Assembly: GCA_039028895.1 (NCBI GenBank)
Contig: JBCCHF010000013.1
Location: 4,360 to 68,359 of the forward strand
DNA from: Bacteroidota bacterium
Lineage (GTDB): Bacteria; Bacteroidota; Bacteroidia; Chitinophagales; Saprospiraceae
Reading direction: 5' to 3'
Length of the DNA: 64,000 nt
The notes beneath the pieces were generated by a model. That model saw only the letters and a program-made list of their open reading frames with translations. It was not told where the DNA came from and did not search any database. Of this stretch, positions 23,868 to 59,913 are shown piece after piece (the first letter of the stretch is position 1; each line of letters begins with the position of its first letter). The position numbers were made by a program, and so were the translations under genes.

Positions 23868-24674
23868 CTACTTAACCGTACTCCAATCTACAGGGTCTAG
23901 TGACCGAAATACTGCTTCGGGCAATTCATCGAAAACCTGGATGTCAGATAATAGTCGTCCCTTACCTCTCTCGTCTGAAAGCAAAATGTGACCGTGTTGC
24001 GTATAGTTGTTCCATGGTGTTTTGAAAATTGGTTTTTCTGCTTCGGCTTTATTGAAAAAAGCCCATTCGCTTACGAGGCGGGTTTCAGTATCCACATACA
24101 CATAGTATTTATGCTCTGGTGAAATACCGACGTTGTTAAATGTGAGTTGAAGGAGGTCGGCGGCTTTACCGGCCTCAGTGGTATCAATGCCAATGTATTT
24201 CAGGGTTACCCCTGAATCTTTTAATTTAAATGGCATAAACAGCCAATAGGAGTCATTGATCCACTTGGTACGACCAGCTTCAATGTATTTGGCAATTGAA
24301 TCTATAGATTCATGAATGACGTCTCCAACCTTGACCTGGCCCTTTTTATTTTTGATATTGACCAGGGTCGTTGAATTTTCTTTAGGATCTTCTATTCTCA
24401 CATCTCCTGACCACTTATCCCATACCAACAATCTGCTTCCAAAGAAATTCCATTTGATGATTCGGGTTTGGTCCCAATTGGTTCGGCCTCCCATTGCTAG
24501 CATTACTTCGTCTGCAATCTCAATTGCTTTAGTGTCTGAACCTTCGAGGTCAAAGCCATTGGCAGGAGGGTTGGGGTCACTTGATTGTGTTGTATTCTCC
24601 ACATTATTACAAGAGAAAAATAAAAACATCGCTAGTAAAGCGCTTAACGTAAAGATGAATTTAATTTGATGCAT
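23868..24674 (-). CDS. Hypothetical lipoprotein
   Basis: The ORF is 23868..24713. The Met at 24674 gives MHQIKFIFTLSALLAMFLFFSC, a lipobox-like signal ending in Cys. No recognisable catalytic motif. It overlaps the CotH gene stop by 14 nt. Confidence 0.5.
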   Translation of the reverse strand: MHQIKFIFTLSALLAMFLFFSCNNVENTTQSSDPNPPANGFDLEGSDTKAIEIADEVMLAMGGRTNWDQTRIIKWNFFGSRLLVWDKWSGDVRIEDPKENSTTLVNIKNKKGQVKVGDVIHESIDSIAKYIEAGRTKWINDSYWLFMPFKLKDSGVTLKYIGIDTTEAGKAADLLQLTFNNVGISPEHKYYVYVDTETRLVSEWAFFNKAEAEKPIFKTPWNNYTQHGHILLSDERGKGRLLSDIQVFDELPEAVFRSLDPVDWSTVK

Positions 24675-27189
24675 TTTGAATTGGATTTGGGTAAAAAAGG
24701 CCATCAATATCATGCTTTTTTGAACCTTTAATAGTTTCTTGATTGACCTTGATGGTTATGGATGAATCAACGAGGTGATGTTGCTTTGTATTTTCAATTA
24801 AAATATCATCTATTTCAAAGGAAATAGGCGTTTCATCGTATTCTGCTTTTTTAAAATACGCTGCCAAACCGAAATCTCCGTTGGTAAGTTTTATGGTATT
24901 TCCTTTTACGGATGAACCATCTTTTACGGCAATGCCAGTGCTTTGTTCTGTGAATGTGAGTTGCTCCAAATCCACAATCCCTCCTTCACCAATGGTAATG
25001 GCTTTGTCTGTTATTTTTCGGCCTTCAGCACCGACAATCTTAATATGGCCTGAAGAGACATCGATCCCGTCATTGCCTATGTTTTCAAGACTAATATTAC
25101 TTATCGTACCAATCCCGAAATCAATGTCCACAGCATCACCGGAAGTATTGGAAAACCTGAGACCATCAAGATTAAACCAGTTAGCTCCAAACACATTCAA
25201 AGCATCTTCAGCATTGATGTTTGTAAACTCACAATCTATGAGTTCTGCTTGTGATTGGTAAATTGTTACACTACCAGTCATAAATCGTTTAGGCCCTTCA
25301 AGTGTCGTGAATCCTGAAAAAATAGCATTGGAGATTTTGGTCCTCTCTGGAGCATTAATGATGTGGATTCCCCTGCCGGTCCCATCGCTGGAGGTAAAAA
25401 TAACCTTGTTTTCGACTTCACCTTTGACATTCATTGGAGCGTAAGAAATTAAATAACTTGATTTGATGAAGTCCATGCTTGCTCCTGCCTCTACGATTAC
25501 CATTTTCCCTTGCGGAATAATAATGGGAGTAGTTAAGGTATGAACTCCGGTTTTTATAGTCCAGGTATCCTTGTCTATGCTAAACAGATTTCGATCTTCA
25601 GAGACGGTAGTTTCCGGAGCCCGGTTTCGATTAGGGGCAGGCCATCTCGATATTTTCTTAATAAAAATCTCATTATCTGAAACGGCTTTGTATTGTAAGT
25701 ATCTGTGGTCAGCAGGAATTGAAACTTTAGTGCTTGGAGGATCAAATCTCCTGTCATATACATTAAGTTTTACCGGGGGAGATAATTCCCGGAAGGACAA
25801 TTCTTTCGAAGGAGCACTTCCCAATACTTCTATTGGAGTGCCATGGTAATTTCTTAAGGTGACCACCCTGCCCGTATCGTTAACAACAGCAGTATTAGCT
25901 CTAAGTGCCATTGTTTTATAAAGTGTTTTCTTTGGGTTACCAAAATATGGATCTTCGACTGGCAAAATAGCATATTCGAATTCAGTGGTCAAGCGGTTTT
26001 TAATTTCATTATTGATGGATTTGGCCCTTTCGAAAAGGCTATTTCCATCAAATTGGTAAGCGTGAAATTCACCATCAATTAAATTTGACAAGAATAACAT
26101 TTCCTGTTGAAAATCTGAGAGCATTGTACGTATGTATACTTCAGAACTATATTTTTCGAGATAACTGAAATACAAATCCTTGAAAGTCTGGTCTTTGAAT
26201 AGGTGGAAGATGGCGACCTGATCTCTAAACGGATAAATTTCGTCTTTTCGGTTGTCTCCCAGGTGATGTTTTTTTACCCAATAAAAGTTTTTGTTTTCGG
26301 TGAAGTTGTCAAACGCAATAGGCTCAAGAAGGCCGGTAAAGGGGTTGAAATAGAACCTGACATTATGCCAGCGAATAGCATGATAGGTTTGGCAGACATC
26401 CATAATCGCAAAAAAGCGGGCGGTGACATCTATATCGACGATTTCACTGGCCGGAGCAGAGGCATAGCGAAAATGATCCATCAAAGTTTGCGCAGCGATG
26501 AATTGATTTCGCAGATTAGGATTGTTCCACGTTCTGTCCTTTTTAAATGGCCTGATGTCGGCTGCTTCAAACTCAGGTAAAACAGGATGGGGGAATTCTG
26601 ACTTTTTTGGCCGCCTTAGTTGGATCTCCCAAAATGAATCTTCTTCGAATTTTACTATAGGTGCTTCTCGACGGTTCATTGACTCTGGCAACTGTTTGTC
26701 GAAGTGTTCTTCAATGGCATATAGTCCCCAGGATTCGCCATTGACTTTGAGGTTTCTAAAAAAATACCTTAACGATGGCACGTTTTCCCGGCGCATCCAT
26801 TTATGGATAAACCATTCATCCAGATAGTGTCTTCGCTGGGGACTTTGGAGGGAAAAAGTGCGTAAGCCTGAAATGGCATTTCCTTTTTTTACCTTGACCC
26901 TGAATGACCATTTCTTTTTTTCAAGATGGTCAAGCCAATCACCTTTTAACCTGATGTCAACTGGAATCGCCTTATTGCGATAATGTATGGTCGCATCGAC
27001 ATATTGTTTTTCCTCATCCGTAATAATCCCTTTTTCCAATGCCATGAGACGATAAGCCTGTAATAGCATGAAAGATGCTTCCGGGATTTCCATGCGCAAC
27101 TGTTCCACTTTTGTTTCCTGAAAGCAACAGACAAAAGTGATTACCGTAGTGAGCAGAATCGCGGTTAGAAAATATTTCCACTTCTTCAT
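24661..27189 (-). CDS. CotH-family (atypical kinase fold) protein fused to a C-terminal parallel beta-helix domain
   Basis: 842 aa with an N-terminal signal/anchor. CotH-like core: IRLKGDWLDHLEKKKWSFRVKVKKGNAISGLRTFSLQSP...YFFRNLKVNGESWGLYAIEEHFDK. The C-terminal ~300 aa carry repeated beta-helix rungs (NISLENIGNDGIDVSSG, ITIGEGGIVDLEQ, IAVKDGSSVKGN). Confidence 0.7.
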   Translation of the reverse strand: MKKWKYFLTAILLTTVITFVCCFQETKVEQLRMEIPEASFMLLQAYRLMALEKGIITDEEKQYVDATIHYRNKAIPVDIRLKGDWLDHLEKKKWSFRVKVKKGNAISGLRTFSLQSPQRRHYLDEWFIHKWMRRENVPSLRYFFRNLKVNGESWGLYAIEEHFDKQLPESMNRREAPIVKFEEDSFWEIQLRRPKKSEFPHPVLPEFEAADIRPFKKDRTWNNPNLRNQFIAAQTLMDHFRYASAPASEIVDIDVTARFFAIMDVCQTYHAIRWHNVRFYFNPFTGLLEPIAFDNFTENKNFYWVKKHHLGDNRKDEIYPFRDQVAIFHLFKDQTFKDLYFSYLEKYSSEVYIRTMLSDFQQEMLFLSNLIDGEFHAYQFDGNSLFERAKSINNEIKNRLTTEFEYAILPVEDPYFGNPKKTLYKTMALRANTAVVNDTGRVVTLRNYHGTPIEVLGSAPSKELSFRELSPPVKLNVYDRRFDPPSTKVSIPADHRYLQYKAVSDNEIFIKKISRWPAPNRNRAPETTVSEDRNLFSIDKDTWTIKTGVHTLTTPIIIPQGKMVIVEAGASMDFIKSSYLISYAPMNVKGEVENKVIFTSSDGTGRGIHIINAPERTKISNAIFSGFTTLEGPKRFMTGSVTIYQSQAELIDCEFTNINAEDALNVFGANWFNLDGLRFSNTSGDAVDIDFGIGTISNISLENIGNDGIDVSSGHIKIVGAEGRKITDKAITIGEGGIVDLEQLTFTEQSTGIAVKDGSSVKGNTIKLTNGDFGLAAYFKKAEYDETPISFEIDDILIENTKQHHLVDSSITIKVNQETIKGSKKHDIDGLFYPNPIQNASN

Positions 27190-27251
27190 GGGAGGAACTC
27201 TAATAAATCCTAATTTAGGAATAATTAAGCTTTTATTCAGTAGTAGATTAC

Positions 27252-28208
27252 ATGACGATTTTCGAGAATGACATGGTAGATGCGGCCAAATTTTTGCAGT
27301 TAATTAACAATAGGCGAAAGTTTATTTTAATTTCTGGAGTATTGGGTTTTGTCATAGCACTTTTGGCCAGCCTGGCTATTCCTGTAAAGTATAAAGCCTC
27401 TGGAACCTTGTACCCCGGCAATGTGGAACGGTGGGATGAACTGTTGAAAAAACCGCAATTCGGTACCGAACTTGATGCCCGGCATCTGCTCGAGATTTTC
27501 GATTCGGATCGACTCAGGGAAGCCATTTTCCAAAAGCATGATTTAATTGCCTATTATGCCTTGGATACTACCATTGCTGGCTGGCCCCACCAATTACATC
27601 AATCCTTCCGGAAGGATATCACCTATTCCCGCTCTGTCAATAGGGCCATCATCATAACGGCAACAATGAAAGACCCTGAACTTGCGGCAGGGGTAGTTAA
27701 TTCCATGATCTCGTTAAGTGATGAAGTCAGAGATACAATTTTTCGGGATAATATGGAGGCGGAGTTAAAATCATTAGAGTTGATTTACACAGCACAGGAG
27801 GCTCTTACAAAAAAAGTCCTTGATAGTATTTATCTCCTCAAACCACCTTCTGGAGCCGATGAAATTCTGTTCAACCAGGTGTTCACTACTGATTCATCCT
27901 TAGTTTTGGTCGGTGAGTCAGGCTATATTAACAGTCCACAACTGGAGCGACTTGCCAACCAGTATTTTCTGGAAAAAGCGACGCTTTCCAAATGGAAGGG
28001 TAGGGTAGACTCAGCCCAAACAAATTTCCAAAGGCCTTTGCCAAAAACTTATGTGCTAAGCTCAGCGAAACCTGCCTACGATAAGTCTTACGATTACTTG
28101 TGGAGAAATGCATTTGCAGGTGGACTGGCAGCCTTGTTTTTTGCCATTATCATTATTGCTTTTGACGATCGGTTTCAGATTTTCAGGACTCAAAAAGCGC
28201 AGGCATGA
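27252..28208 (+). CDS. Wzz-like polysaccharide chain-length determinant family protein
   Basis: 318 aa. N-terminal TM helix (ILISGVLGFVIALLASLAI) is followed by VKYKASGTLYP. The long periplasmic region is helical. C-terminal TM helix (FAGGLAALFFAIIIIAF). ATGA start/stop overlap with the next gene. Confidence 0.6.
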   Translation: MTIFENDMVDAAKFLQLINNRRKFILISGVLGFVIALLASLAIPVKYKASGTLYPGNVERWDELLKKPQFGTELDARHLLEIFDSDRLREAIFQKHDLIAYYALDTTIAGWPHQLHQSFRKDITYSRSVNRAIIITATMKDPELAAGVVNSMISLSDEVRDTIFRDNMEAELKSLELIYTAQEALTKKVLDSIYLLKPPSGADEILFNQVFTTDSSLVLVGESGYINSPQLERLANQYFLEKATLSKWKGRVDSAQTNFQRPLPKTYVLSSAKPAYDKSYDYLWRNAFAGGLAALFFAIIIIAFDDRFQIFRTQKAQA

Positions 28209-29668
28209 AAACGGCAGAGCGGATGCCTGTGGTGATGTGGCAATATATTTTGCTATTGTGTTTCATGATAATTGGTGGATGCTTATTATTCTCCGAATCA
28301 AAATGGGCTATTCCTTTTTTGTTTGGTCTTCCAGCAATAGGAGCTACAATTTACCTTTTGTTGTTCAATAAGGAATTGCTGATTATACTCTGTTTCTTCC
28401 TGGTTCCTTTGTCGATGGGTGTAAACATCGGTTGGGGAATTCAGGTGGGCTTTCCTGCTGAATTGATCGTAGTTGTGATGGCAGGACTTTTCTTCCTTTT
28501 GTATTTGAAGAAATGGCCTGTTATAGACGTAAATGTGCTGTTGCACCCACTAACGATTTTGATTTTGACAGATCTTCTTTGGTTGTACATTGCGACGATA
28601 TTCAGTGCGATACCGGAGGTTTCCTTTAAACGTATTTTGCTTAAAACAGCTTTTGTGTTGTTCTTTTATTTTTTCATTATACATTGGTTTCGCTTCCGCA
28701 ATAAACTGGCTTATCCACTCATTTTTTATGGCATCGGTCTGGTGCCTGTTATTTTATTAACCCTGAATAAGCATGCGAGCTATGACTTCACACACAAGGT
28801 TGCATTTAATATTCCTCAACCTTTTTATGTTGATCATACTATTTATGGGGCGTGTCTTGCCTTTATTTTGCCAATTCTCGTAATTCTGTTTTTCCGTTAC
28901 CGGAAATTCGGGTTGAATAAGATCAATCGGCTATTGGCCGGAGGGGGTATGCTTTTATTTGCAGGGGCAACGTTTTATTCCTTTTCCCGGGCGTCACTTT
29001 TGAGTCTGGTAGTTGTCGCAGGTTTTTTTATCCTTTTAAAACTCGGGTTAAGAATGCGTGGACTACTCATCTTAATGGCTGTTACTTTGGTTTTAGCTAT
29101 TTCAGCAGTTTATTTCTTGCCAGGGGTCATCTTTCAAGGTGAGGCTGTAAGTAACAGAGGTAGTATCAAACAGCACTTTCAGTCAATGACTAACCTCCAA
29201 ACTGATGCCTCGAACCTGGAAAGAATAAATAGATGGGTTTGTGCAATTGATATGTTTAAGGACCGTCCAATAACAGGATTCGGACCCGGAACTTATCAAT
29301 TTGAATATGGAAATTACCAAACGTATGAAAGGCTGACATACATCAGCACATTTGCAGGTGACAGGGGTAATGCACATTCAGAATACCTCACCTATTTGGC
29401 GGAAGCCGGCTTACCAGGGTTTATTATTTTCTTGCTTTTGGTATGTATTACGATAAGTACAGGTATCAAAGTTACATTTGGTAATCATAAAGAACCGCTA
29501 AGACTGATTGGTTTGGGGGTATTATTGGGGTTAACCACTTTCTTCTTTCACGGGCTATTAAATGCATTTTGGGAACAAGAAAAAATGGCTGCCCTGGTTT
29601 ATCCCGCAATGGCCTGTTTGGTAGCAATTGATGTCTTTAACAGAGGAGAAAAACCTACTGCCCATTAA
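28205..29668 (+). CDS. O-antigen ligase/polymerase-like (Wzy_C family) polytopic membrane protein
   Basis: 487 aa with more than 10 TM helices. Wzy_C-type segment FYSFSRASLLSLVVVAGFF and periplasmic loop GFGPGTYQFEY...NAHSEYLTYLAEAGLPGF. Confidence 0.75.
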   Translation: MKTAERMPVVMWQYILLLCFMIIGGCLLFSESKWAIPFLFGLPAIGATIYLLLFNKELLIILCFFLVPLSMGVNIGWGIQVGFPAELIVVVMAGLFFLLYLKKWPVIDVNVLLHPLTILILTDLLWLYIATIFSAIPEVSFKRILLKTAFVLFFYFFIIHWFRFRNKLAYPLIFYGIGLVPVILLTLNKHASYDFTHKVAFNIPQPFYVDHTIYGACLAFILPILVILFFRYRKFGLNKINRLLAGGGMLLFAGATFYSFSRASLLSLVVVAGFFILLKLGLRMRGLLILMAVTLVLAISAVYFLPGVIFQGEAVSNRGSIKQHFQSMTNLQTDASNLERINRWVCAIDMFKDRPITGFGPGTYQFEYGNYQTYERLTYISTFAGDRGNAHSEYLTYLAEAGLPGFIIFLLLVCITISTGIKVTFGNHKEPLRLIGLGVLLGLTTFFFHGLLNAFWEQEKMAALVYPAMACLVAIDVFNRGEKPTAH

Positions 29669-31529
29669 TGGCCTGGTTAATAGTGTTGATGAAAAGGTCT
29701 CTTTTTTCAGATTGGGCTGTTTTGCTGGTCCAGCGAAGAGCGTTCTCATAATCCTTTAACTGGTAAAGGGAAAAAGCAAGATTAAACTTACAGTCATCAA
29801 AGGAAGGGTTAATCCTTAAGGCTTCTTCAAAATAAGGGATGGCTTGCTGGTATCGCTCCATTTTTGCAAGTGTTGTCCCATAATTGTTGAGCACATGATA
29901 ATTATATGGATTGACTTTAAGCGCTTTTTCAAAACAGGTGAAGGCATTGGAAATATCATTTTGATTAAAATAGCCGATGCCTTCAATCCAGGGGACTGGT
30001 ACGGTAGTAGGATCCATTGTGTAGAGCTTCGAAAAGGACTTTTGAGCTTCGGCAATCGCTAGGGGCCAGTTTTGATTGACTTTTGCCGTCAATGCTTTCC
30101 TCACATGTACCTCTCCAATAAAGCGCATGGCTCCGGAGTGAAGATTTGTGGCTAAAAGGAACATTAAACTCCCAAAAAACCAAGGGAACCAGTTACCTGG
30201 TAACTTTGGTTTTCCAATCTTTAGATAATCTTTTCCCCAATGCGCAGTGAGCGCCAGTAAAATGGCGAACACAGCTTGATGCTCCAGGCGTTCTTTAGGA
30301 AAGTCAATAAATGAGATAATTGAAAACCCAAATAATCCGATCAGTGTGAGTACCAAAAATTCTTTCTGTTTGAATGATTTGGTTCTGAGGGTTTTGATGC
30401 CTGCATAAAATGCAAAACCAAAGATGGCCAAAAAGGAAAGGATTCCGAAAAAGCCTGTTTCGGCGAAAACCTCAAGGTAATCGTTATGAACTCTTGTAGC
30501 AAAAGTATCAAGAGTTTCAAATCGCCAGCCTCCTTGAATGCTATTACTCGGGAAATAGATCTTCCAACTTCCACTGCCCAACCCGAATAACCAATTTTCT
30601 GCGATAAGAGAAGTGGTTTTATGCCAAATGAAAAGACGTTCTGCCGCTGTTCCCGATTCTAGCCAGGTGGTAATATTGAGCCGCTTCCCAAGATCAGGGA
30701 ATGCCCCACTGAAGCGGATAATCGCAAATAAGAGCAAAGTAGCTCCTGCACCTATTGGTAACAACCTTGTCAGGAAAATCTTTCTGAATTTTGGAAGGTC
30801 AGTAGCGAGCCAAAAAATATAAAGTGTTCCGCAAAGCAAAAATACGAGGTAGACAACACGTACTTGTAAAAATAGAATTAGGAGGACTTGTGCGAACAAC
30901 AAAAGGGTATACCACATCTTCTGTTTGGCCTTAATAAAACCGATCAGATTAAATGGCAATAATAAAAACAGAAATTCTGAAAGTAAACTTTTGTTACCCA
31001 TAAAGCCACTTACATTATAGAGTGCCTGATTTGAAAAGCTTTCACTCTCAGTAAGTGATAACATTTCAAACGGAACGTACAATAACAATACGGCCGTAAG
31101 CCCAAAAGAGGATTGCACTATTCTTTCAAGAATGGGAAGCTTGGACTTTTCCATTAATAGCCTCATGAAATAATAAATACAGAAGCCAATTAGGATTTTT
31201 TGCGTCGTAAAGACTGCCTCACCAAGATCATAGGCCCATGTAATTGAAATGAGATGAATAAGGTAATAAACCAGGAAAGCAACATCAATTAGATTCAGGC
31301 TGGCCGACTTTTGCTTGCTAAATTGTTCGTAAAAAAAATACCCACCAACCAATAAAATCAATGACTGCAGCAAATATCTGGATACCAGGTATTTATCCAT
31401 TAAAGAGGGCCAAAAAAATATTGAGCTGAAAAATAGAATAAATACTACGAATCCAGTGGCCTTTTTTGCCATTATTAGGGTCTTATAAGAAGTTAAGGAG
31501 TCAAAAAATCCAGATATGATTTTGTCCAA
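29655..31529 (-). CDS. O-antigen ligase-like (Wzy_C family) membrane protein fused to C-terminal TPR repeats
   Basis: 624 aa, polytopic. Loop LFGLGSGSWKIYFP...RVHNDYLEVFAETGFFG. C-terminal TPR units (NAFTCFEKALKVNPYNYHVLNNYGTTLAKMERYQQAIPYFEEALRINP). Its 3' end overlaps the convergent ligase-like gene by 14 nt. Confidence 0.75.
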   Translation of the reverse strand: MDKIISGFFDSLTSYKTLIMAKKATGFVVFILFFSSIFFWPSLMDKYLVSRYLLQSLILLVGGYFFYEQFSKQKSASLNLIDVAFLVYYLIHLISITWAYDLGEAVFTTQKILIGFCIYYFMRLLMEKSKLPILERIVQSSFGLTAVLLLYVPFEMLSLTESESFSNQALYNVSGFMGNKSLLSEFLFLLLPFNLIGFIKAKQKMWYTLLLFAQVLLILFLQVRVVYLVFLLCGTLYIFWLATDLPKFRKIFLTRLLPIGAGATLLLFAIIRFSGAFPDLGKRLNITTWLESGTAAERLFIWHKTTSLIAENWLFGLGSGSWKIYFPSNSIQGGWRFETLDTFATRVHNDYLEVFAETGFFGILSFLAIFGFAFYAGIKTLRTKSFKQKEFLVLTLIGLFGFSIISFIDFPKERLEHQAVFAILLALTAHWGKDYLKIGKPKLPGNWFPWFFGSLMFLLATNLHSGAMRFIGEVHVRKALTAKVNQNWPLAIAEAQKSFSKLYTMDPTTVPVPWIEGIGYFNQNDISNAFTCFEKALKVNPYNYHVLNNYGTTLAKMERYQQAIPYFEEALRINPSFDDCKFNLAFSLYQLKDYENALRWTSKTAQSEKRDLFINTINQAINGQ

Positions 31530-31556
31530 TTTAATGTTTATCGATCAAAAAAGAAA

Positions 31557-31585
31557 GGGTAAACTGTGCATTTTACAGTTTACCC
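31557..31585 (-). terminator. Rho-independent terminator downstream of the T9SS adhesin genes
   Basis: 11-bp perfect stem GGGTAAACTGT (31557..31567) / ACAGTTTACCC (31575..31585) with a 7-nt loop. A U-rich tract follows on the minus strand (plus-strand aaaaaagaaa at 31547..31556). Confidence 0.55.
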
Positions 31586-31680
31586 TTTCAATTCGATTGT
31601 AACATGATCGAAGACCAAAAACAGAAATGGTCATAGTTTGGGCCGGCGGGATCCGGCTGCTTCGCACCCGTAAAATCTTT

Positions 31681-45665: not shown

Positions 45666-45735
45666 GGTTAGTTGGTTATAGGTTTTACAAATTTGAATAA
45701 GGGCTAACACCAAAGTTATCAGTAATTTAAGGACA

Positions 45736-47963: not shown

Positions 47964-47969
47964 GGAGGG

Positions 47970-48731: not shown

Positions 48732-48747
48732 AAACGAAAGGTAAAAT

Positions 48748-49536: not shown

Positions 49537-49548
49537 CCAGCCTTAAGC

Positions 49549-50994: not shown

Positions 50995-51008
50995 ATGCTT
51001 CATGTTTT

Positions 51009-52130: not shown

Positions 52131-52142
52131 CTAATTTGAAAA

Positions 52143-52961
52143 ATGGATCTTTTTTCTGTCAAGGTTGGCTGGTATGATGCAAAATGTCGTTTGTTTAAAT
52201 GGTATCGAACGGTGAAAAACCGCTTTTCGCCTCCCAAATTATCCAAATTTTTATTCATTTTATGCCCACCGTATAGCGGATCAACCCTTTTACACGAAAT
52301 CATCTGCACTTCTCCTGTTGTCAGTCCCAACAATGTCTTTGGAACAAGAGAAGGACAGAGTCTTCCCGAAGTTCGCCGATTAATTGAATATACGAAAAGG
52401 TGGGAGCCAGAATATCCATACCCCTGGGAAGCCATAAAAGCTGCCTGGATGCCCTATTGGGAACACAGCAAATTGCTATTGCTTGATAAAAGTCCACCTA
52501 ATACATTTCGCGCGAAAGCTATTCAACATCATTTTGATCCTTCTGTTTTTATTGTGTTGACTCGTAATCCTTACGTATTATGCGAGTCGCTGATGCGTAA
52601 GAACAAATTATCCGCTGGCGAATCGGCAGGTATTGTCGTTCGTTTTCTGACGTATCAAAAAATGAATCTTGAACAATTGTCAGAAACCTTACTGATCAGG
52701 TATGAAGATCTGGTCGCCCACCCTGATTCTATTAAAGAGAACCTACTCGGTTTCCTGCCAGAATTATCGGCGATAAGTGTTCATAAAAAATTTAAAGGCC
52801 ACAACAAGGACAAGCAAAAGATACCAGTTACGGATTTAAATATTGGAAAAATTGAAAAGATCAAGGACCAGGAAATGGAGGAGATAAACGCAGTTTTTTC
52901 GCTTTACGGGGCATTGTTTTCCTATTTCAGTTATACCCTAATTCACGAAGCCGATCGATAA
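52143..52961 (+). CDS. Sulfotransferase-family protein
   Basis: 272 aa. The 5'-PSB-like loop FILCPPYSGSTLLHEI (P-x-x-G-S-T) and 3'-PB-like VLTRNPY fit PAPS-dependent sulfotransferases. Confidence 0.6.
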   Translation: MDLFSVKVGWYDAKCRLFKWYRTVKNRFSPPKLSKFLFILCPPYSGSTLLHEIICTSPVVSPNNVFGTREGQSLPEVRRLIEYTKRWEPEYPYPWEAIKAAWMPYWEHSKLLLLDKSPPNTFRAKAIQHHFDPSVFIVLTRNPYVLCESLMRKNKLSAGESAGIVVRFLTYQKMNLEQLSETLLIRYEDLVAHPDSIKENLLGFLPELSAISVHKKFKGHNKDKQKIPVTDLNIGKIEKIKDQEMEEINAVFSLYGALFSYFSYTLIHEADR

Positions 52962-53976
52962 CCTCATTGCCTATGATTGTCTGGCCAAAAGAATTTAGGT
53001 GAGGGTCATTTCCATAAAAGACCGGTGAGATTCTTTCTGCTTTTTGGAGTACAGGAAGTGTATTGATCATACTCAACCCTGGTCTTTCAAGTTTTGCTGA
53101 GAGCCTTTCCAGAAAAGGATAAATGATTTGCTGGTGATTTAGTTGTTCTTCAAATTTTGCCCCGATCTTCTCCATATTTGATTGGTACTGTGCACTAACT
53201 TGCGCACAATGCGGAATGACAACTATCAGAATGTTCTTCCCTGTGTCTACTTTATCTGTCAGGTCTTTTACTTTTTTAGCGTAAGCTTCAAAATCCTTTT
53301 CTCTCTTTCCGGACAGAAATACAGAATTACTGATTAATCGGGGTTCAGTCTGAAACTGTAACTTCACGCGTCTTGAATAAGTTGCAGGGTCATAATCAGC
53401 TAATGTTTTTGGATCAAATTCGACAGGAGAAGTATTTGCTACAGTTTGTCTGATGGCTGGCATCTTGGCGTTGATATATCCGATGACCCAGAGTCGATCG
53501 CTCAGCCACCAGTATACTTTTCGAATAGTAGAAATTGAGCTGCCTTTTGTCCTGTGTTTATATTCAAACAAGTCGTTGCCTACGTAAACCTGGTAGATAA
53601 CAACTCCAGGATCTACCTTTCGGAACCTTTTTCTGGCCATTAAACCCGATTGCTTAATCGTTGTTCCAGGCACAGCAGCATTAAAAACCCGGGTGTTTAA
53701 CAAACTGTCACGCAGGTGGCCCACATACCCAAGCGGATCGGCTGTAAACGAATCACCCAAGGCCAGCACTTTTGGATCTGAATCTTTCGAATAGGTTAGT
53801 TCATTTGGGTTCAACCCTTTAAAATTACCACCATAAAAATCGAAAATGTAAAGTCGGTAACAAGCTTCCAGCAAAAGGAGGACGGTAACACACAAAAAAC
53901 CGAAGTAAAGTATTACCCGAAAAAGCTTTTTAGCGCCTTTTTTTAAAAATGATGCCGGAAAATCCTGATTTTGCAT
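52927..53976 (-). CDS. Membrane-anchored SGNH/GDSL-family hydrolase-like protein
   Basis: 349 aa with an N-terminal TM helix. Block I is KVLALGDSFTADP and block V-like is GNDPHLNSFG. Its 3' end overlaps the sulfotransferase 3' end by 35 nt. Confidence 0.6.
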   Translation of the reverse strand: MQNQDFPASFLKKGAKKLFRVILYFGFLCVTVLLLLEACYRLYIFDFYGGNFKGLNPNELTYSKDSDPKVLALGDSFTADPLGYVGHLRDSLLNTRVFNAAVPGTTIKQSGLMARKRFRKVDPGVVIYQVYVGNDLFEYKHRTKGSSISTIRKVYWWLSDRLWVIGYINAKMPAIRQTVANTSPVEFDPKTLADYDPATYSRRVKLQFQTEPRLISNSVFLSGKREKDFEAYAKKVKDLTDKVDTGKNILIVVIPHCAQVSAQYQSNMEKIGAKFEEQLNHQQIIYPFLERLSAKLERPGLSMINTLPVLQKAERISPVFYGNDPHLNSFGQTIIGNEVIDRLRELGYN

Positions 53977-54008
53977 GCCTGAAATTAAGGAATTACCCTA
54001 ATCGGTTG

Positions 54009-55067
54009 ATGAAAAAACAGGATGAAAGACATATCCTTTGGCTGACGCCAGGTTTCCCGGTTGATGAATCAGATACAAGATGTATACCGCCACTTCAATC
54101 TTTGGCTATTGGTTTGCGTGATTGTTCTGGGGTGCGGCTGACTATCATTTCTTTACACTATCCATTTGAAAAAAAACGGTATTTGTGGAATGATATCCCC
54201 GTGCATGCATGCGGGGCAAGTAATCGACCACTTGTCCTTCGATTGCCGATCTGGAAAAAAGTGATAGACATCGCAAAGGCTATAAACAAGGAACATCCAA
54301 TTGATCAAATCCATTCATTCTGGCTGTCGGAATGTGCGTGGCTGGGTCAAAAACTCCATCACCGATTTTCAAAACCCCATTTGGTCACCCTAATGGGGCA
54401 GGAAGGGCTAAAAGGAAATGTTTACGAGCCCTGGATACATCTTGAAAAATTAAAAATTGCGGCCATCTCGCCATACCAGTTTGCATTATTCGAGAAAAGA
54501 AAAAAAAGAAAACCTGACCATATCATCCCATGGGGAATAGACCGGGAAAACTTACCCCTTTTGGGGAATGCTGAACGTGAAATAGACATTTTAGGGGTTG
54601 GTTCGTTGATAGCGCTTAAAGACTTTAAGACTTTTATTCGGATTGTGGCAAACATGAAAAAAGAAAAGCCAGATCTCAAATGTGCTTTGGTTGGTGATGG
54701 GGTGGAAAAAAAAGAATTGGAAAAAATGGCTAATGATCTTGGACTTGCAGATTGCCTGAAATTTCACGGCTTGGTTTCCAGGGAAATGGTTTTTCGGTTA
54801 ATGGCAAAAAGTCGTTGCTTGTTGCATCCGTCTCAATATGAGTCATTTGGAATGGTTTTTTTGGAAGCGTTGGCCTCTGGAATGCATATTGTCTCTCGAG
54901 AAATTGGCATTGCCCGTAAAATGGACCAATGGACAATTGGTGACAACTTGGAAGAATTAGAAGCAGGAGTCAAGAAAATTTTGGGAAAAACTAACCAATC
55001 TTCCGTAATTTTATTCGATCAGGAATCAACGGTAAAAACCTATGTCGATCTTTACCGTATAATGTAA
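54009..55067 (+). CDS. GT4-family (GT-B fold) glycosyltransferase
   Basis: The ORF is 53949..55067. The Met at 54009 (MKKQDERHILWLTPGFP) is preferred. E-x7-E region: QYESFGMVFLEALASGMHIV. Confidence 0.8.
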   Translation: MKKQDERHILWLTPGFPVDESDTRCIPPLQSLAIGLRDCSGVRLTIISLHYPFEKKRYLWNDIPVHACGASNRPLVLRLPIWKKVIDIAKAINKEHPIDQIHSFWLSECAWLGQKLHHRFSKPHLVTLMGQEGLKGNVYEPWIHLEKLKIAAISPYQFALFEKRKKRKPDHIIPWGIDRENLPLLGNAEREIDILGVGSLIALKDFKTFIRIVANMKKEKPDLKCALVGDGVEKKELEKMANDLGLADCLKFHGLVSREMVFRLMAKSRCLLHPSQYESFGMVFLEALASGMHIVSREIGIARKMDQWTIGDNLEELEAGVKKILGKTNQSSVILFDQESTVKTYVDLYRIM

Positions 55068-56617
55068 TGAAACATAGCCGGGCCATTAATCCGGTGCCTC
55101 ATTTTATGAAAGTCATTCTCTTCAACCCCAGGTCTGCGTACGCCAAGCACCGGATACCGAACAGTATTCTACAGGTTGGAGCGTCTATTCATGATAAATA
55201 TGATTATGTTTTCGTAGACGGTAACCGTGAAGAAGATCCCTGGGTGAAGATTAAAAGTTATCTTGATACTGGAGAATATAAGGTTTTCGGAACCACAGTA
55301 ATGCCTGGGCCTCAATTGTCGCAAGCTATTCCATACGCAAAAAAGGTAAGAGAGCAATACCCAGGTGTGTTCAATATCTGGGGTGGTTATTTTGCTGCCA
55401 ATCAACATAAGGTTGTGCTTAACTCAGGGTTTGTTGATTTTGTAGTTAATGGCCCTGGCGACAAGGCATTCCCTGAATTGCTGGATGCCATAAATGACAA
55501 TAAACCTTATGAGTTTATCTCCAATCTGATTTATAAGACCGCGGAAGGTGCTATCGTCAAAACTAATAAAAACGCATTGCTTGACCAGGATGCTTTACCA
55601 AGATTGCCCTACACTTACCTTGAGCAATTCTACCCAATCAAGGATTACCTGGGGAAGACGTTTATGGGCTCAAAAACCATTTCTTATCATTCCAGCATTG
55701 GTTGTCCGTTCAAGTGCTCATTTTGTGCTGTAGTACCGATTTACGAAGCACGCTGGCGCGGCAAATCAGCTCAGAATATCTACGCTGATATCTCAATGCT
55801 GCGCGAAAAGTATGGTGCCAATGCTATTGAGTTTCATGACAATAATTTTTTCGTTTCCGAAAAACGGGTAGCAGAATTCTCCAGACTGATCATGAATGAT
55901 AATATGCAATGGTGGGGAGAGGGCAGAATAGATACGATCGACAGATACAGTGATGAGTCACTTGAACTCATGCGAAAAGCAGGATGTCGAATGATCTTTT
56001 TTGGAGCGGAAAGCGGTAACGACGAGATATTAAAGCAAATGGACAAAGGCGGAAAACAGACTGCCGCCCAGATCAAAGCATTTGCCGCAAGGCTGAAAAA
56101 GTTTGATATCGTTCCTGAATACTCCTTTGTACTGGGAATGCCAGCCAAAACTCCAGAAAAAGTAATGGCCCAGATCGATGCCGATATCAATTTTATTAAA
56201 CAGATCAAGGCAATCAATCCAAATACGGAAATTATCATTTACGTTTACAGTCCGGTACCTACAGAGGGTTCCGAGCTTTACAAAAGGATAACAGAAGCAG
56301 GTTTCAGTTTTCCAGTCAAACTTGAAGACTGGCTTGAACCGGCATGGGCAAATTTCGACCTACGAAAAAATCCATTAACACCATGGCTTACCCCGGAAAT
56401 GGTAGATAAGATCAAAGATTTTGAGACCGTTCTCAATGCATTTTACCCAACGGCATCCGATTTTAAATTAAGCGGTTTCCAAAAGAAAGTCATGAAGACC
56501 TTGTCTGGTTTCCGTTACCGGAATAATATCTTCAAATACCCTTACGAACTCAAAGCACTTCAAAAATACTGGTTAAAGTATCGTCAACCCGAAATCGAAG
56601 GCTTCTATGCTGAGTAG
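55067..56617 (+). CDS. B12-binding-domain radical SAM enzyme (rSAM-3)
   Basis: 516 aa. TAATG overlap with the GT4 stop (alternative Met at 55106, MKVILFNPRS). Cluster C213/C217/C220 (SSIGCPFKCSFCAV; tgt 55703..55705). Confidence 0.85.
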   Translation: MKHSRAINPVPHFMKVILFNPRSAYAKHRIPNSILQVGASIHDKYDYVFVDGNREEDPWVKIKSYLDTGEYKVFGTTVMPGPQLSQAIPYAKKVREQYPGVFNIWGGYFAANQHKVVLNSGFVDFVVNGPGDKAFPELLDAINDNKPYEFISNLIYKTAEGAIVKTNKNALLDQDALPRLPYTYLEQFYPIKDYLGKTFMGSKTISYHSSIGCPFKCSFCAVVPIYEARWRGKSAQNIYADISMLREKYGANAIEFHDNNFFVSEKRVAEFSRLIMNDNMQWWGEGRIDTIDRYSDESLELMRKAGCRMIFFGAESGNDEILKQMDKGGKQTAAQIKAFAARLKKFDIVPEYSFVLGMPAKTPEKVMAQIDADINFIKQIKAINPNTEIIIYVYSPVPTEGSELYKRITEAGFSFPVKLEDWLEPAWANFDLRKNPLTPWLTPEMVDKIKDFETVLNAFYPTASDFKLSGFQKKVMKTLSGFRYRNNIFKYPYELKALQKYWLKYRQPEIEGFYAE

Positions 56618-57296
56618 CAAAACAAGGACTACCTGGCGAAACAGGCTAAAAAGAATTGTTTTCCCCATCCTCGAAAAATGGTATCAAGGCTATAGTCAGA
56701 AAGAACGCACCTACAAATTCAAAGGATTGCGGGTAACCGTTCCGCCGACGGTGTTCCATCCGGGAGTATTTTTAAGTACGAAGATCTTTGCCAATTTCCT
56801 TGATAAGCTCGAGCTTCATGGTGCGAAGTTACTTGAACTGGGCTGTGGCAGTGGGCTATTGTCATTATATGCCTCCAAACGAGGCGCTGAAGTTACGGCA
56901 ACCGACATTAATCCGATCGCCATTAACGGATTAATCCACAGTAGTATCCAGAATGGTTTGAACATAGCGGCTCTTGAATCCGACTTGTTTGCGGACATTC
57001 CTGTTCAAATATTTGATTACATCCTGATCAATCCACCATACTACCCCAAAACACCAACCAGTTATAAGGAGCGTGCTTTTTATTGTGGGGTAGATTTCGA
57101 ATATTTCCACGCCCTCTTCCTTCAAATGCCTGCTTATATAAAAGAAGATTCAGAGGTGTACATGATCTTGTCAGAAGATTGTGATATTGAAAAAATTCTT
57201 CATATCGCTAAGGACAATAAATTCGAATTCAAGGAGGTACATCGCCAATCCAGGCGATGGGAAATGAATTATGTTTTTCAGCTGAGCTTCTGTTGA
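56607..57296 (+). CDS. NPPY-motif SAM methyltransferase (HemK/PrmC / RsmC-like small-domain type)
   Basis: 229 aa, with an 11-nt overlap with rSAM-3. Motif I is LLELGCGSGLLSLYASKRGAEVTATDIN. Motif IV is ILINPPYYP. Confidence 0.75.
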   Translation: MLSSKTRTTWRNRLKRIVFPILEKWYQGYSQKERTYKFKGLRVTVPPTVFHPGVFLSTKIFANFLDKLELHGAKLLELGCGSGLLSLYASKRGAEVTATDINPIAINGLIHSSIQNGLNIAALESDLFADIPVQIFDYILINPPYYPKTPTSYKERAFYCGVDFEYFHALFLQMPAYIKEDSEVYMILSEDCDIEKILHIAKDNKFEFKEVHRQSRRWEMNYVFQLSFC

Positions 57297-58696
57297 GGCA
57301 CCAGTTTTTCGTAAACCAGTTTTTCAATCGGCATAGCAAAGAAATTCATCTTGCATCTCAGTTGTGCTATGGCTTGTAATGGCTTGGTTAGAATATTCTG
57401 TCTTCTGCCTGCTACCTTGTTGTAAAACTTGAAGCGCTCAATCAACTCAAACTTGGCTTTACTGACCCACGGACCAGAGGACCCGATGTAATCGAAATCG
57501 GACCATTCACTAAGCGTTTGTGGTAGTTGATAACCTTTAGCGACAACATCCTGAGTGATCTTTGAGCCGGGATAAGGCTTAAAGTAGAAAATAGGTGTAG
57601 TAAAGAGCGGATGCATGGAGTTAAGCTCCAGCGCAGTTTTTAAGGTCGACCGGACACTATCTTCCGATTCACCAGGAAATCCAACAATAAAAGGGAAAAT
57701 AACGGCAATATCTCTTTCAGCACACCGTCGTGCCGTATCGTAGACCTGTTCAATCTTGATATCTTTCATGAGCCAGTCCATCATCTCCTGTGAGCCAGAC
57801 TCCACGCCTACCAACACTCTGCGTAGTCCTGACTTTTTACATAAGTCAAATTCTTCCTCCTTGAGGCGGAACCCCTGGTCGGCACGCATGGTCCCTGCCC
57901 AGGTAGTTTGGAGGTTTCGATTAATGAATTCTTCGGAAATGGCGACTACACGTTTTCTTTTGGTAAAGAAAGTCTCATCCTGAAAATTGATATCTGTGAA
58001 GTTGAATTTTTTCTTCCAGAACTCAAGTTCTTCACCCATCCTTTCCGGTTGGAGAGCCGTCCAGCCTCTTTTATACACAAAAGGGTCAGCACAAAATGTA
58101 CATCTGAATCGGCAACCGGCAGATGAGATATAATCGAATTGCCGGTTTTTCTTGAATTTGAAATAATTCTCAACTTTTATCAGGTCATAATTTACCGTAG
58201 GGAAAAAGTTAACATCTTGTAGGGGTCTTCCCAGGTTTTTAACGATCCCACCATCTGCATTGCGATAAGTAATACCTTTTACATCATCAAATTCACCACC
58301 TTCAGCGACTCGATTTACGATTTCAACAAAAGTCTCTTCTCCCTGGGCTTGCACGCTAATGTCGATAGCGGGTTCATCCCTTAGTGTTTCTGTCGGGAAA
58401 AGGGATGGATGCCATCCGCCCCATACGATTGTTAAACTTGGGAATTTGGCTTTTACTGCCCGGGTAACTTTTACAGCATCTTTTAAAGGAGCACCTGTAA
58501 GTGCTGTTACACCGAAACAAATAGCATCATCACAGGCTTCCAGCACTTTTTTCAACGGTGATTTGTCGACGCGGCCGTCTACTATTATGACTTCATACCG
58601 TTTTGGGTCAAGGCAAGACCCAATTGCCAGTAAAGCCAACGGCATATCATAAAATACCGAAACTGGATTATAGAGGACTACTTTCTTTTTCGTCAT
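57278..58696 (-). CDS. B12-binding-domain radical SAM enzyme (rSAM-4, paralogue of rSAM-3)
   Basis: 472 aa. N-terminus KKVVLYNPVSVFYDMPLALLAIG...VIIVDGR parallels rSAM-3. Cluster SSAGCRFRCTFCADP. Its 3' end overlaps the NPPY methyltransferase by 19 nt. Confidence 0.85.
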   Translation of the reverse strand: MTKKKVVLYNPVSVFYDMPLALLAIGSCLDPKRYEVIIVDGRVDKSPLKKVLEACDDAICFGVTALTGAPLKDAVKVTRAVKAKFPSLTIVWGGWHPSLFPTETLRDEPAIDISVQAQGEETFVEIVNRVAEGGEFDDVKGITYRNADGGIVKNLGRPLQDVNFFPTVNYDLIKVENYFKFKKNRQFDYISSAGCRFRCTFCADPFVYKRGWTALQPERMGEELEFWKKKFNFTDINFQDETFFTKRKRVVAISEEFINRNLQTTWAGTMRADQGFRLKEEEFDLCKKSGLRRVLVGVESGSQEMMDWLMKDIKIEQVYDTARRCAERDIAVIFPFIVGFPGESEDSVRSTLKTALELNSMHPLFTTPIFYFKPYPGSKITQDVVAKGYQLPQTLSEWSDFDYIGSSGPWVSKAKFELIERFKFYNKVAGRRQNILTKPLQAIAQLRCKMNFFAMPIEKLVYEKLVPQQKLS

Positions 58697-58823
58697 GGAA
58701 GGCGCTTAAAGATGAAAGGTACGAACTTTAGAGGAATAAGGGTAAATCCCAGTTTCAAAATGGCCGAAATAGTTATTAGATTTTAAACAATAAACAGCAT
58801 GCTGGAACATTTGTTTTTGAAAT

Positions 58824-59663
58824 TTAAAATTCCCAGCTTAACCTGGTCAGGCCTAGTCCAGTATCAAGTTTAACATTTGCTTTTTTGCGATGTTTCTGGG
58901 CTACTTTTTTGTGAATGGTAGGAATGAAATATCCAACTGCTCCGCCAATAAGGTAACCTGCAATGACATCAGTGTAGAAGTGTTTTCCGGCAGCAACGCG
59001 CATTCCGGCAACAGTGGCAGGTACTGCAGCAGCGAGTCCCCAAACTACATAACGCCATTTGGAGTCTGGGTGATAATCGGCAAAAAGTCTGGCCGAAAAA
59101 AACGACATGGACGACACCATGGCCGTATGCCCTGAAAAGAAGGATACTTTTGCGCCTTTACCATCTTTGAAAGGACTATACGGTACATCAGGATTATAAA
59201 CCAGGGGTCGGGTTCGTTTGAAAGCGCCTTTTGAGAACCTGACCAGGGCTTCTGTCATAAATAGAGTTTCCGCAGTCAATGCACCAAGAACCAGAAAATC
59301 CTTTCTCATTTTATTGTCAGCCAAAACAAATATGACAGGGTAAAGTGGTGCAGTATTCAAAAACCAATCGCTGACATCAGCAATGCTTTCATTGAAAAAA
59401 CCAGTTACACCCCGATCAAAAGGATTGATATCCATAGGGTCGAGGTCGGCAATATCCATCTCTGTCAGTGGCATTATCTTTTGGGTGAGACTAATCCCCC
59501 CTAATTCGAAAGCAAGGCTTGTAAAGACAATCGGGATGTCAGCCTGGTAACTTAAACGATATGGAGATTGCTCTTTCTGGGCTGCTGAAATCTGTGGAAT
59601 TAGCCAGATAAACAAAACAAAGAGCAAACTGTATAAGATTGATTTAGACGATAAAAAAGACAT
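58824..59663 (-). CDS. PAP2-family (type 2 phosphatidic acid phosphatase) membrane phosphatase
   Basis: The ORF is 58824..59720. The Met at 59663 begins the signal/TM MSFLSSKSILYSLLFVLFIWLI. PAP2 motifs: KRTRP, FFSGHT, RVAAGKHFYTDV. Confidence 0.8.
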   Translation of the reverse strand: MSFLSSKSILYSLLFVLFIWLIPQISAAQKEQSPYRLSYQADIPIVFTSLAFELGGISLTQKIMPLTEMDIADLDPMDINPFDRGVTGFFNESIADVSDWFLNTAPLYPVIFVLADNKMRKDFLVLGALTAETLFMTEALVRFSKGAFKRTRPLVYNPDVPYSPFKDGKGAKVSFFSGHTAMVSSMSFFSARLFADYHPDSKWRYVVWGLAAAVPATVAGMRVAAGKHFYTDVIAGYLIGGAVGYFIPTIHKKVAQKHRKKANVKLDTGLGLTRLSWEF

Positions 59664-59913
59664 TTTAAATAAATATAATTTGAGTTCATCCTGAATGTAC
59701 AACATATTTTTTTCTTCCATTCAAAAATCGAAAGTTGCCTGATTTTTGCCGGAGTGATAAGTAATTACCTTTTGCCTTAAACAAGGGCATGAAATTCCCA
59801 CTCATATTTTTGACTTGGTAAACCTGAATAACCAGATTTTATTTTCGAAATTAATTGATTTTTAAAAATAAAATTTCGAATCGAAAAATAATTGACATTT
59901 GTACAAAATTTTA

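Follow-up and report, generated by a model that had tools for sequence, protein, structure and literature searches.

What could be made by an envelope-glycan island that is dense in S-adenosylmethionine (SAM) chemistry and carries no gene to start or flip a lipid-linked glycan? This question is raised by positions 24661-59720 (26 genes) of a 64,000-nucleotide stretch of DNA from a Saprospiraceae bacterium (GCA_039028895.1, contig JBCCHF010000013.1, positions 4,360 to 68,359), the window analysed here, which sits on a 131-kb contig (C13) of a 6.6-Mb genome. Open reading frames (ORFs) of at least 100 aa across the window were scanned with Pfam and NCBIfam, topology was called by a hydropathy scan for signal peptides and transmembrane (TM) segments, the whole assembly was screened by six-frame hidden Markov model (HMM) searches, paralogues were sought with tblastn, and AlphaFold2 (AF2) models of two proteins were compared with known structures. 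The reading we favour, at a probability of about 0.55, is one accessory envelope glycoconjugate locus made of three joined modules, whose product would be started and flipped by enzymes encoded elsewhere in the genome, modified in the cytoplasm and finished in the periplasm. From gene identities, compartments, absences and the conservation and co-occurrence of the modules we infer the substrates, the order of the steps and the final acceptor that are proposed below.

Conserved gene order argues for a single locus. In another genus of the same family (G006, contig C46) the following genes stand in the same relative arrangement, with protein identities to the window of 31-65%: Wzy_C, SprB-like cargo, Wzy_C-TPR, a nucleotidyltransferase-fold protein (NTase), radical SAM protein 1 (rSAM1), methyltransferase 1 (MT1), FkbM, MT3, a DprE2-like short-chain dehydrogenase/reductase (SDR), DprE1, UbiA, rSAM2, MT2, SGNH, GT-C and GT4b. 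The order is repeated in L027, a Bacteroidota metagenome-assembled genome, whose locus lacks UbiA-DprE1 and runs on into GT4a; common to both is Wzy_C - cargo - Wzy_C/TPR - NTase - rSAM1 - MT1 ... rSAM2 - MT2 - SGNH - GT-C - GT4. In addition, the right half is repeated in a 6.2-Mb genome (L049), where SGNH1, GT-C, GT4b, GT4a, the sulfotransferase and rSAM3 stand in a row. This joined order in at least two other genera indicates that the island is not a random patchwork, and the region from Wzy_C to rSAM3 appears to be a recurrent supra-operonic unit. Furthermore, neighbouring genes between 37518 and 58696 either overlap or are no more than 48 nt apart, which leaves no room for hidden genes there, and an overlap of 28 nt between MT2 and GT-C crosses a module border. 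The locus is accessory, with DprE1 orthologues in about 5 of 40 relatives.

A first-pass annotation, made by reading the sequence without database searches, had listed four B12-binding rSAM proteins, five methyltransferases, one sulfotransferase, two SGNH proteins, two GT4 enzymes and one GT-C enzyme, and this inventory was matched gene for gene by Pfam, NCBIfam and motifs. UbiA, DprE1, PAP2, a Wzz-like protein, two Wzy_C proteins, CotH and two type IX secretion system (T9SS) cargo proteins also lie where it had placed them; its list lacked the NTase-fold protein (37518-38468) and a secreted 400-aa protein (44511-45713). It had recognised no initiating transferase, flippase, ABC exporter or sugar-nucleotide gene in the island, and in agreement no island ORF matches a phosphoglycosyltransferase (PGT), Wzx/MATE, GtrA, ABC-exporter or sugar-nucleotide family of Pfam or NCBIfam. 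The six-frame HMM screen found none of Bac_transf, Glycos_transf_4, Polysacc_synt and GtrA anywhere on the 131-kb contig; elsewhere in the genome it found a single WbaP-type PGT gene (Bac_transf, on C24), a WecA/MraY-type pair (Glycos_transf_4, on C4 and C6), five Wzx genes (Polysacc_synt, on C5, C8, C4, C12 and C19) and a single GtrA gene (C7:123520). A Wzy_C paralogue lies about 2 kb downstream of the Wzx gene on C5, which indicates that a canonical locus is present elsewhere in the genome. Because the locus has no initiating or flipping genes, the start and flip of a lipid-linked glycan must come in trans, which bears out one part of the first-pass interpretation; WbaP- or WecA-type initiation and Wzx flipping would be supplied by these other loci. 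Like Wzx/Wzy O-antigen and exopolysaccharide loci, the island brings together Wzy_C, a two-TM Wzz-like protein, Leloir GT4 enzymes and methyl-, sulfo- and acyl-tailoring in one compact locus; unlike them, it has no initiating PGT, Wzx or sugar-nucleotide genes and does have four B12-rSAMs, which to our knowledge described O-antigen loci do not carry.

The compartments of the gene products also speak for early tailoring. Neither signal peptide nor TM segment was found in the proteins of 17 of the 26 island genes, including the four rSAMs, the five methyltransferases, both GT4 enzymes, the sulfotransferase, the NTase and DprE1. Multi-TM or anchored membrane proteins are Wzz, Wzy_C, GT-C, UbiA, both SGNH proteins and PAP2, and the secreted proteins or lipoproteins are CotH, the adhesins and the 281-aa and 400-aa proteins. 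SAM, 3'-phosphoadenosine-5'-phosphosulfate (PAPS), NDP-sugars and the reductive activation of Fe-S clusters are cytoplasmic, and together with the lack of export signals this implies that methylation, radical chemistry and sulfation precede export; judged by topology and cofactors, most of the island would act before export.

The radical SAM cassette and its tailoring genes

The following genes belong to the first module or to the tailoring block:

37518-38468, plus strand: 316-aa NTase, winged helix-turn-helix plus Pol-beta fold (AF2 model; no Pfam match)
38502-39968, plus strand: B12-rSAM1 (Pfam B12-binding and Radical_SAM)
about 39965-40768, plus strand (listed GTG start at 40103): MT1, class I methyltransferase (Pfam)
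40768-42174, plus strand: B12-rSAM2 (Pfam B12-binding and Radical_SAM)
42178-42957, plus strand: MT2, class I methyltransferase (Pfam)
from 48748, plus strand: MT3, class I methyltransferase (Pfam)
49549-50994, plus strand: SGNH1, AlgX/SGNH protein, TM-anchored (Pfam)
51009-52130, minus strand: GT4a (Pfam)
52143-52961, plus strand: sulfotransferase (Pfam Sulfotransfer_3)
52927-53976, minus strand: SGNH2, TM-anchored (no Pfam match; GDS and DPHLN motifs)
53949-55067, plus strand: GT4b (Pfam)
from 55067, plus strand: B12-rSAM3 (Pfam B12-binding and Radical_SAM)
56607-57296, plus strand: MT4, NPPY/HemK-like methyltransferase (Pfam)
57278-58696, minus strand: B12-rSAM4 (Pfam B12-binding and Radical_SAM), on which rSAM3-MT4 converge

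All four rSAM proteins have an N-terminal B12-binding domain followed by an rSAM core with an intact CxxxCxxC motif. By tblastn, every B12-rSAM paralogue of the cassette kind in the genome falls within the island, a clustering beyond chance. The core NTase-rSAM1-MT1(-rSAM2-MT2)(-GT4b)(-rSAM3-MT4) is kept in 18 loci from Aureispira/Saprospiraceae, Chitinophagales, Cytophagales, Cyclobacteriaceae, Flavobacteriales, Rhodothermales and Ignavibacteriaceae, and of 400 genomes drawn evenly from the phylum 45 (~11%) have an rSAM1 orthologue (E <=1e-100), as do 39 of 179 genera. In the loci of Aureispira, Ignavibacteriaceae, Cyclobacteriaceae and Chitinophagales, rSAM3 is 64-74% and MT4 38-47% identical. 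The core has variable neighbours, among them Wzy_C proteins, GT2, GT4, a SPASM rSAM and a GT87-like membrane transferase (GT-C). Its Cyclobacteriaceae versions also have an ABC protein that best matches PglK, a flippase of lipid-linked oligosaccharides, with a score well short of the equivalog cut-off (E 1e-80). In one related locus (L024), a multi-TM protein encoded upstream of Wzy_C was considered as a WecA-type primer and rejected, as it is an AI-2E transporter.

In the tailoring block (48748-55067), where the genes alternate strands, SGNH1, GT4b, GT4a and the sulfotransferase are conserved together with GT-C and rSAM3 in L027 and L049, and an SGNH2 homologue adjoins the UbiA-DprE1 operon of a metagenomic contig (L048). 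The start codons of the divergent pairs FkbM/MT3 (48731-48748) and GT4a/sulfotransferase (52130-52143) are 16 nt and 12 nt apart, so either their promoters lie inside the neighbouring coding sequence or the starts are mis-set. Ahead of the listed GTG start at 40103, which falls right at SAM-binding motif I, the frame of MT1 stays open as far as about 39965; this stretch encodes a typical methyltransferase N-terminus (IIKAAFDHIAKDYDQSF...) without ATG, GTG or TTG, and MT1 orthologues have 269-275 aa and begin at or overlap the rSAM1 stop. On these grounds MT1 likely uses a non-canonical start (CTG, ATT or ATC) that overlaps the rSAM1 stop.

The AF2 model of the NTase (pLDDT 90.6) has a winged-helix domain, a Pol-beta-type nucleotidyltransferase core and a helical tail, and its fold matched weakly and partially the adenylyltransferases DrrA, MNT, ANT and GlnE (best E 3e-3); sequence searches of the PDB with NTase, GT-C and Wzy_C returned nothing useful. 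The NTase was discarded as a marker of the cassette, since its family has 4897 homologues in public data, none with a Pfam or NCBIfam model, and is also found without rSAM genes. The best distant NCBIfam matches of the rSAMs are BchE, HpnJ and PhpK, with rSAM3 and rSAM4 matching HpnJ (E 3e-36 and 1e-46), and by NCBIfam cut-offs none could be assigned to BchE, HpnJ, HpnR, PhpK, GenK-like or another characterised subfamily. The cassette resembles the class B rSAMs that act on sugars and glycolipids (GenK/GenD1, Fom3, AprD4, HpnJ) in its B12-binding domain and CxxxCxxC core, and Fom1/Fom3, where the rSAM substrate is nucleotidyl-activated by the cytidylyltransferase Fom1, in having a nucleotidyltransferase next to an rSAM. 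It differs from them in that its NTase has a Pol-beta fold and is not of the Fom1/LicC type, that no phosphoenolpyruvate (PEP) mutase or aminoglycoside genes are present, and that the rSAM chemistry is here a prediction. A phosphonate pathway of PhpK/Fom3 type was rejected, as there is no PEP mutase and the matches are far below the cut-offs. So was the modification of a ribosomally synthesized peptide or of a protein, as the short gaps fit no precursor-sized ORF and the neighbours in the 18 loci are glycan genes. The cassette is conserved yet uncharacterised, and a literature search found no published description of it or of a B12-rSAM in O-antigen or polysaccharide loci.

In the proposed pathway a cytoplasmic module of the NTase, the four B12-rSAMs (three of them each paired with a methyltransferase), the two Leloir GT4 enzymes and the sulfotransferase would assemble a short sugar unit on an intermediate that is lipid-linked or nucleotidyl-activated, and would alter this unit heavily through methylation (at C, O or N) or radical rearrangement and through sulfation. 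If the cassette does act on sugars, cobalamin-dependent radical chemistry would join the tailoring of surface polysaccharides, new methylated or rearranged sugars would be predicted, and the locus offers a compact, concrete gene set for testing such chemistry.

The pentose branch

A second module is formed by the genes below, of which FkbM, UbiA, DprE1 and the 400-aa protein belong to the same operon:

42930-44462, plus strand: GT-C glycosyltransferase, PMT_2/GT39-like (Pfam PMT_2, E 6.7e-15)
44511-45713, minus strand: secreted 400-aa protein, at the position of DprE2 in relatives
45736-47112, minus strand: DprE1-type FAD oxidase, FAD_binding_4 (NF053785, E 1.4e-121, full length; Mycobacterium smegmatis DprE1, PDB 4aut, E 9e-82)
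47073-47963, minus strand: UbiA-type polyprenyl-phosphate phosphoribosyltransferase (Pfam UbiA, E 5.6e-21; NF008977, E 1.2e-61)
47970-48731, minus strand: FkbM methyltransferase (Pfam)
58824-59720, minus strand: PAP2 phosphatase (Pfam PAP2, E 4.3e-18)

UbiA scores just under the equivalog cut-offs (NF008977, full length, 208.7 bits against 234; NF008978, 204.9 against 207). The AF2 model of the GT-C protein (pLDDT 89.8) has ArnT as its best fold match (5ezm, E 5.9e-8, TM-score 0.63) and also matched AftA and AftD. ArnT takes an undecaprenyl-phosphate-pentose as donor and lipid A as acceptor. GT-C orthologues (40-44% identity) were found in three genomes (G006, G043 and G046), all DprE1-positive, and in none of 17 DprE1-negative genomes; counting the genome studied here the co-occurrence is 4/4 versus 0/17 (hypergeometric P ~0.006). 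In addition, on the metagenomic contig L048 genes for UbiA, DprE1 and a DprE2-type SDR directly precede one for a fusion of a HAD phosphatase with a GT-C that is 42% identical to that of the window. Taken together, the fold and the company that it keeps make the GT-C protein a candidate periplasmic pentofuranosyltransferase. The L048 genes, which come from an uncultured Bacteroidota bacterium, read as an arabinofuranose-type module that is both compact and complete; the fusion is protein P0134 (10001-12091), and T9SS cargo genes lie to either side of the set. UbiA-DprE1(-DprE2) forms an operon of its own in G019, G043, G054 and L048, and in G019, G006 and L048 the DprE2-type SDR after DprE1 scores 289-298 bits with NF005489 and 164-179 bits with the DprE2 model.

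The mycobacterial pathway to decaprenylphosphoryl ribose and arabinose (DPR/DPA) uses UbiA/Rv3806c, the PAP2-type Rv3807c, DprE1/DprE2 and GT-Cs of the Aft/Emb kind. With this pathway and with three-component extracytoplasmic pentofuranosylation the locus shares a UbiA-type phosphoribosyltransferase, DprE1, a candidate PAP2 phosphatase and a GT-C, whose donor specificity is predicted, as well as GT-C orthologues that are found together with DprE1 and that, in a UbiA-DprE1-DprE2 operon, form one protein with a phosphatase. It departs from them in that the genome has no DprE2 orthologue and the locus no MATE or GtrA flippase, that its GT-C is PMT_2/ArnT-like and not a demonstrated member of GT136 or Aft/Emb, and that the module is embedded in an rSAM cassette in a Bacteroidota host. 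By analogy, it is the side-chain pentofuranosylation that Kelly et al. (2024, PMC11127046) described for Citrobacter youngae O1/O2, rather than a backbone route, that the UbiA/DprE1/GT-C set matches. The pentose branch looks like a DprE2-less variant of a known system, and the cassette like the new, uncharacterised part of the locus.

In the pathway proposed here the UbiA-type enzyme would move ribose-5-phosphate from phosphoribosyl pyrophosphate (PRPP) onto polyprenyl phosphate, a phosphatase, possibly PAP2, would strip the 5-phosphate, DprE1 would oxidise C2 and, after flipping, the ArnT-like GT-C would attach the pentofuranose to the glycan in the periplasm. The missing DprE2 and dedicated flippase could mean that reduction and flipping act in trans, or that the transferred sugar is not arabinofuranose. 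PAP2 is a possible polyprenyl-P-ribose-5-P phosphatase by analogy with Rv3807c; its membership of the locus is uncertain, and its counterpart in L048 is the HAD domain fused to GT-C. DprE1 orthologues of two relatives are broken (G006:C46:39700-40998 with one in-frame TGA; G020:C92:1618-2827 split over three frames) and the FkbM gene of G006 appears in two pieces, which may be decay of the relatives' pentose modules or assembly errors.

Surface display and the competing explanations

The left part of the island, with one gene just outside it, contains polymerase-, ligase- and adhesin-type genes:

23868-24713, minus strand: 281-aa lipoprotein, downstream of the CotH gene, which it overlaps by 53 nt
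24661-27189, minus strand: CotH-domain secreted protein or lipoprotein, 842 aa (Pfam CotH, E 1.3e-10)
27252-28208, plus strand: Wzz-like co-polymerase, assigned solely from a sub-threshold Pfam Wzz match (20.4 bits, cut-off 25.5) and the two-TM topology of polysaccharide co-polymerases
28205-29668, plus strand: Wzy_C protein, 13 TM, overlapping the Wzz-like gene by 4 nt (Pfam Wzy_C, E 2.8e-23)
29655-31529, minus strand: Wzy_C membrane domain with C-terminal TPR repeats (Wzy_C-TPR; Pfam Wzy_C, E 4.9e-16, plus TPR)
31681-34305, minus strand: SprB-repeat cargo with a Por_Secre_tail type-A C-terminal domain (CTD) (Pfam SprB, Por_Secre_tail)
34610-37237, minus strand: SprB-repeat cargo with a Por_Secre_tail type-A CTD (Pfam SprB, Por_Secre_tail)

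The Wzz-like and Wzy_C genes (27252-29668) are a candidate pair of chain-length regulator and polymerase, and Wzy_C-TPR is a candidate ligase of WaaL/PglL type. Wzy_C (28205-29668) has orthologues in G006, L024 and L027, and orthologues of Wzy_C-TPR (27-39% identity) adjoin the NTase-rSAM cassette in G006, L023, L024, L025 and L027. The two cargo proteins are tandem, adhesin-like paralogues of about 875 aa (Por_Secre_tail E 7e-7 and 2e-10), and a homologous cargo gene lies between both Wzy_C genes in three genera, including G006 and L027. This conserved position is a better argument for a link to the T9SS than adjacency. In Cytophaga hutchinsonii type-A cargo is anchored to lipopolysaccharide (LPS) via WaaL (PMC12860637), which gives meaning to a Wzy_C/Wzz locus beside cargo genes. 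As in the systems with LPS-anchored cargo (A-LPS of Porphyromonas gingivalis; WaaL of C. hutchinsonii, PMC12860637), type-A CTD genes here adjoin Wzy_C and Wzz-like genes and the glycan is potentially anionic (sulfated); the TPR fusion on Wzy_C is not described for those WaaL proteins, and attachment of the cargo to the glycan is for this locus a prediction. CotH has two tandem full-length paralogues, 32% identical, on C2 (243011-248286), so the CotH at the island edge is a member of a small family in this genome; no CotH homologue was found in related loci, and in L049 the 281-aa protein has an orthologue (54% identity) at a distance of 8 kb from the related cluster. Whether CotH and the 281-aa lipoprotein (23868-27189) belong to the locus is uncertain.

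In the favoured reading these genes would form the periplasmic module: Wzz-like and Wzy_C would polymerise, the two anchored SGNH proteins would add or remove O-acyl groups, and Wzy_C-TPR would ligate the glycan to lipid A-core, as a surface anchor for type-A T9SS cargo, or directly to protein. A more specific version, in which the cassette makes an undescribed poly-methylated or rearranged sugar, the DprE1-only branch a 2-keto or non-arabinose pentofuranose and Wzy_C-TPR ligates the sulfated glycan as an adhesin anchor or coat, is a speculation that we hold to be rather improbable as a whole. The envelope glycans of free-living Bacteroidota are barely characterised and decide the display of hundreds of T9SS surface proteins, and this locus ties together a DprE2-less periplasmic pentofuranose route, ligase-like Wzy_C genes beside cargo and a widespread rSAM cassette.

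Several observations weigh against the favoured reading. With at least 150 type-A CTD genes in the genome, or roughly one in every 22-44 kb, the adjacency of cargo is by itself near chance and weak evidence, and both adhesins have zero D-(S/T)-(A/I/L/V/M/T) sequons, where the window mean is 2.2 per 1000 residues. No rSAM attains an NCBIfam equivalog cut-off, the best scores being 125-160 bits versus cut-offs of 480-600. Some NTase homologues stand without rSAM genes, and those of L040 and L041 adjoin AraC-type regulators. The HMM search found no DprE2 orthologue genome-wide (best match 103.6 bits versus 289-298 in G019 and G006), and the pentose pathway is perhaps incomplete or altered. PAP2, which has three paralogues of 36-40% identity (on C6, C27 and C30) and no homologue found in related loci, is like CotH multi-copy and not conserved with the cluster. 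Lastly, tblastn, which is insensitive for Wzx, found no PGT, Wzx or GtrA homologue in the flanks of any related locus (within 10 kb for PGT), which could mean that the acceptor is not undecaprenyl-diphosphate-linked.

Dedicated protein glycosylation is one of the two rivals that survive best, both of them unlikely. Here Wzy_C-TPR (PglL/PilO-like), the GT-C (TfpW-like) or both would glycosylate the two adjacent adhesins, and the rest of the island would make their glycan. The Wzy_C family includes protein O-oligosaccharyltransferases, and Pseudomonas aeruginosa TfpW, a GT-C, reportedly puts arabinofuranose made by DprE1/DprE2 on pilin. The cargo gene kept between both Wzy_C genes in three genera would fit such a role, as would the T9SS cargo that flank the GT-C loci L048, L049 and L050. 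However, adjacency is often to be expected with so many CTD genes, both adhesins are devoid of the Bacteroidota O-glycosylation sequon, and most cassette loci have no adjacent cargo.

The other is a glycolipid pathway without an undecaprenyl-diphosphate primer, to which we give the same low standing. A GT4 would act directly on a membrane lipid or on lipid A-core, and remodelling of the head-group sugar would fall to the rSAM/MT cassette, in the manner of HpnI/HpnK/HpnJ with hopanoids. Such a pathway would account for the lack of a nearby PGT or Wzx, both here and in the flanks of related loci, and it is consistent with HpnJ as the best NCBIfam match, far below cut-off, of rSAM3 and rSAM4. Furthermore, GT4 enzymes often take lipid acceptors, those of the island weakly match NCBIfam diacylglycerol and lipoteichoic acid-anchor glycosyltransferases, and ArnT, the closest fold match of the GT-C, has lipid A as its acceptor. 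Against it, Wzy_C, the Wzz-like protein and the PglK-like flippase of the Cyclobacteriaceae versions point to the handling of lipid-linked oligosaccharides, and the Wzx screen of the related loci was, as said, an insensitive one.

The first-pass annotation had preferred late decoration in the periplasm or at the outer leaflet, with methyl, sulfate, acyl and pentosyl groups added to a backbone made elsewhere, and its observation of what the island holds and lacks is confirmed and its interpretation partly supported. The absence of PGT, flippase, exporter and sugar-nucleotide genes and the periplasmic orientation of the GT-C and the anchored SGNH proteins are in line with this view, and they keep pentosyl and acyl decoration in the periplasm plausible. 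Methyl and sulfate groups do not fit it, as the enzymes concerned depend on cytoplasmic cofactors and are among the 17 proteins without signal peptide or TM. Since the two Leloir GT4 enzymes work in the cytoplasm, the island itself would make a part of the backbone or repeat unit, which contradicts a backbone made wholly elsewhere and also the alternative offered then, a route based entirely on polyprenyl-phosphate monosaccharide donors, for which the island has one GT-C. Late decoration as the sole function is quite improbable.

That the rSAM cassette, the pentose module and the Wzy_C/cargo genes are merely side by side in a variable region is very improbable, and the patchwork of unrelated operons named by the first-pass annotation as what would overturn its claim holds by half: the modules are apart in most genomes (DprE1 is in 3 of the 18 cassette genomes and there far from the cassette) and NTase and GT-C homologues also occur alone, but the interleaved order is kept in G006, with UbiA-DprE1 inside the cassette, and in L027 at 30-65% protein identity, and for the right half in L049, the short gaps and overlaps run across module borders, and GT-C orthologues were seen only in genomes with both DprE1 and the cassette.

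Flanking regions

The GC content (0.39-0.46) has no break at the edges of the island and gives no sign of recent transfer. Borders could not be defined by synteny with the genome nominally of the same genus (G001), which is too divergent: it has the flanking cyclase at 34% identity and lacks both the right-flank gene and DprE1. To the left, window positions 2-8853 hold EAD11-CHAT and TPR-CHAT proteins, a pair of S8 subtilases, one of which has a T9SS CTD, and a sigma-70 region-2-like protein adjoining a TPR protein with a weak DUF2207-type membrane-domain match; this looks like a conflict/effector-type neighbourhood, unrelated to the glycan locus. To the right (60001-64000), a same-strand operon encodes an alpha/beta hydrolase, a 344-aa protein without a Pfam match, a class I glutamine amidotransferase (GATase) and a glutathionylspermidine-synthase-like protein. 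A homologue of the 344-aa protein, 68% identical, is present in G004, and this operon appears to be independent of the island.

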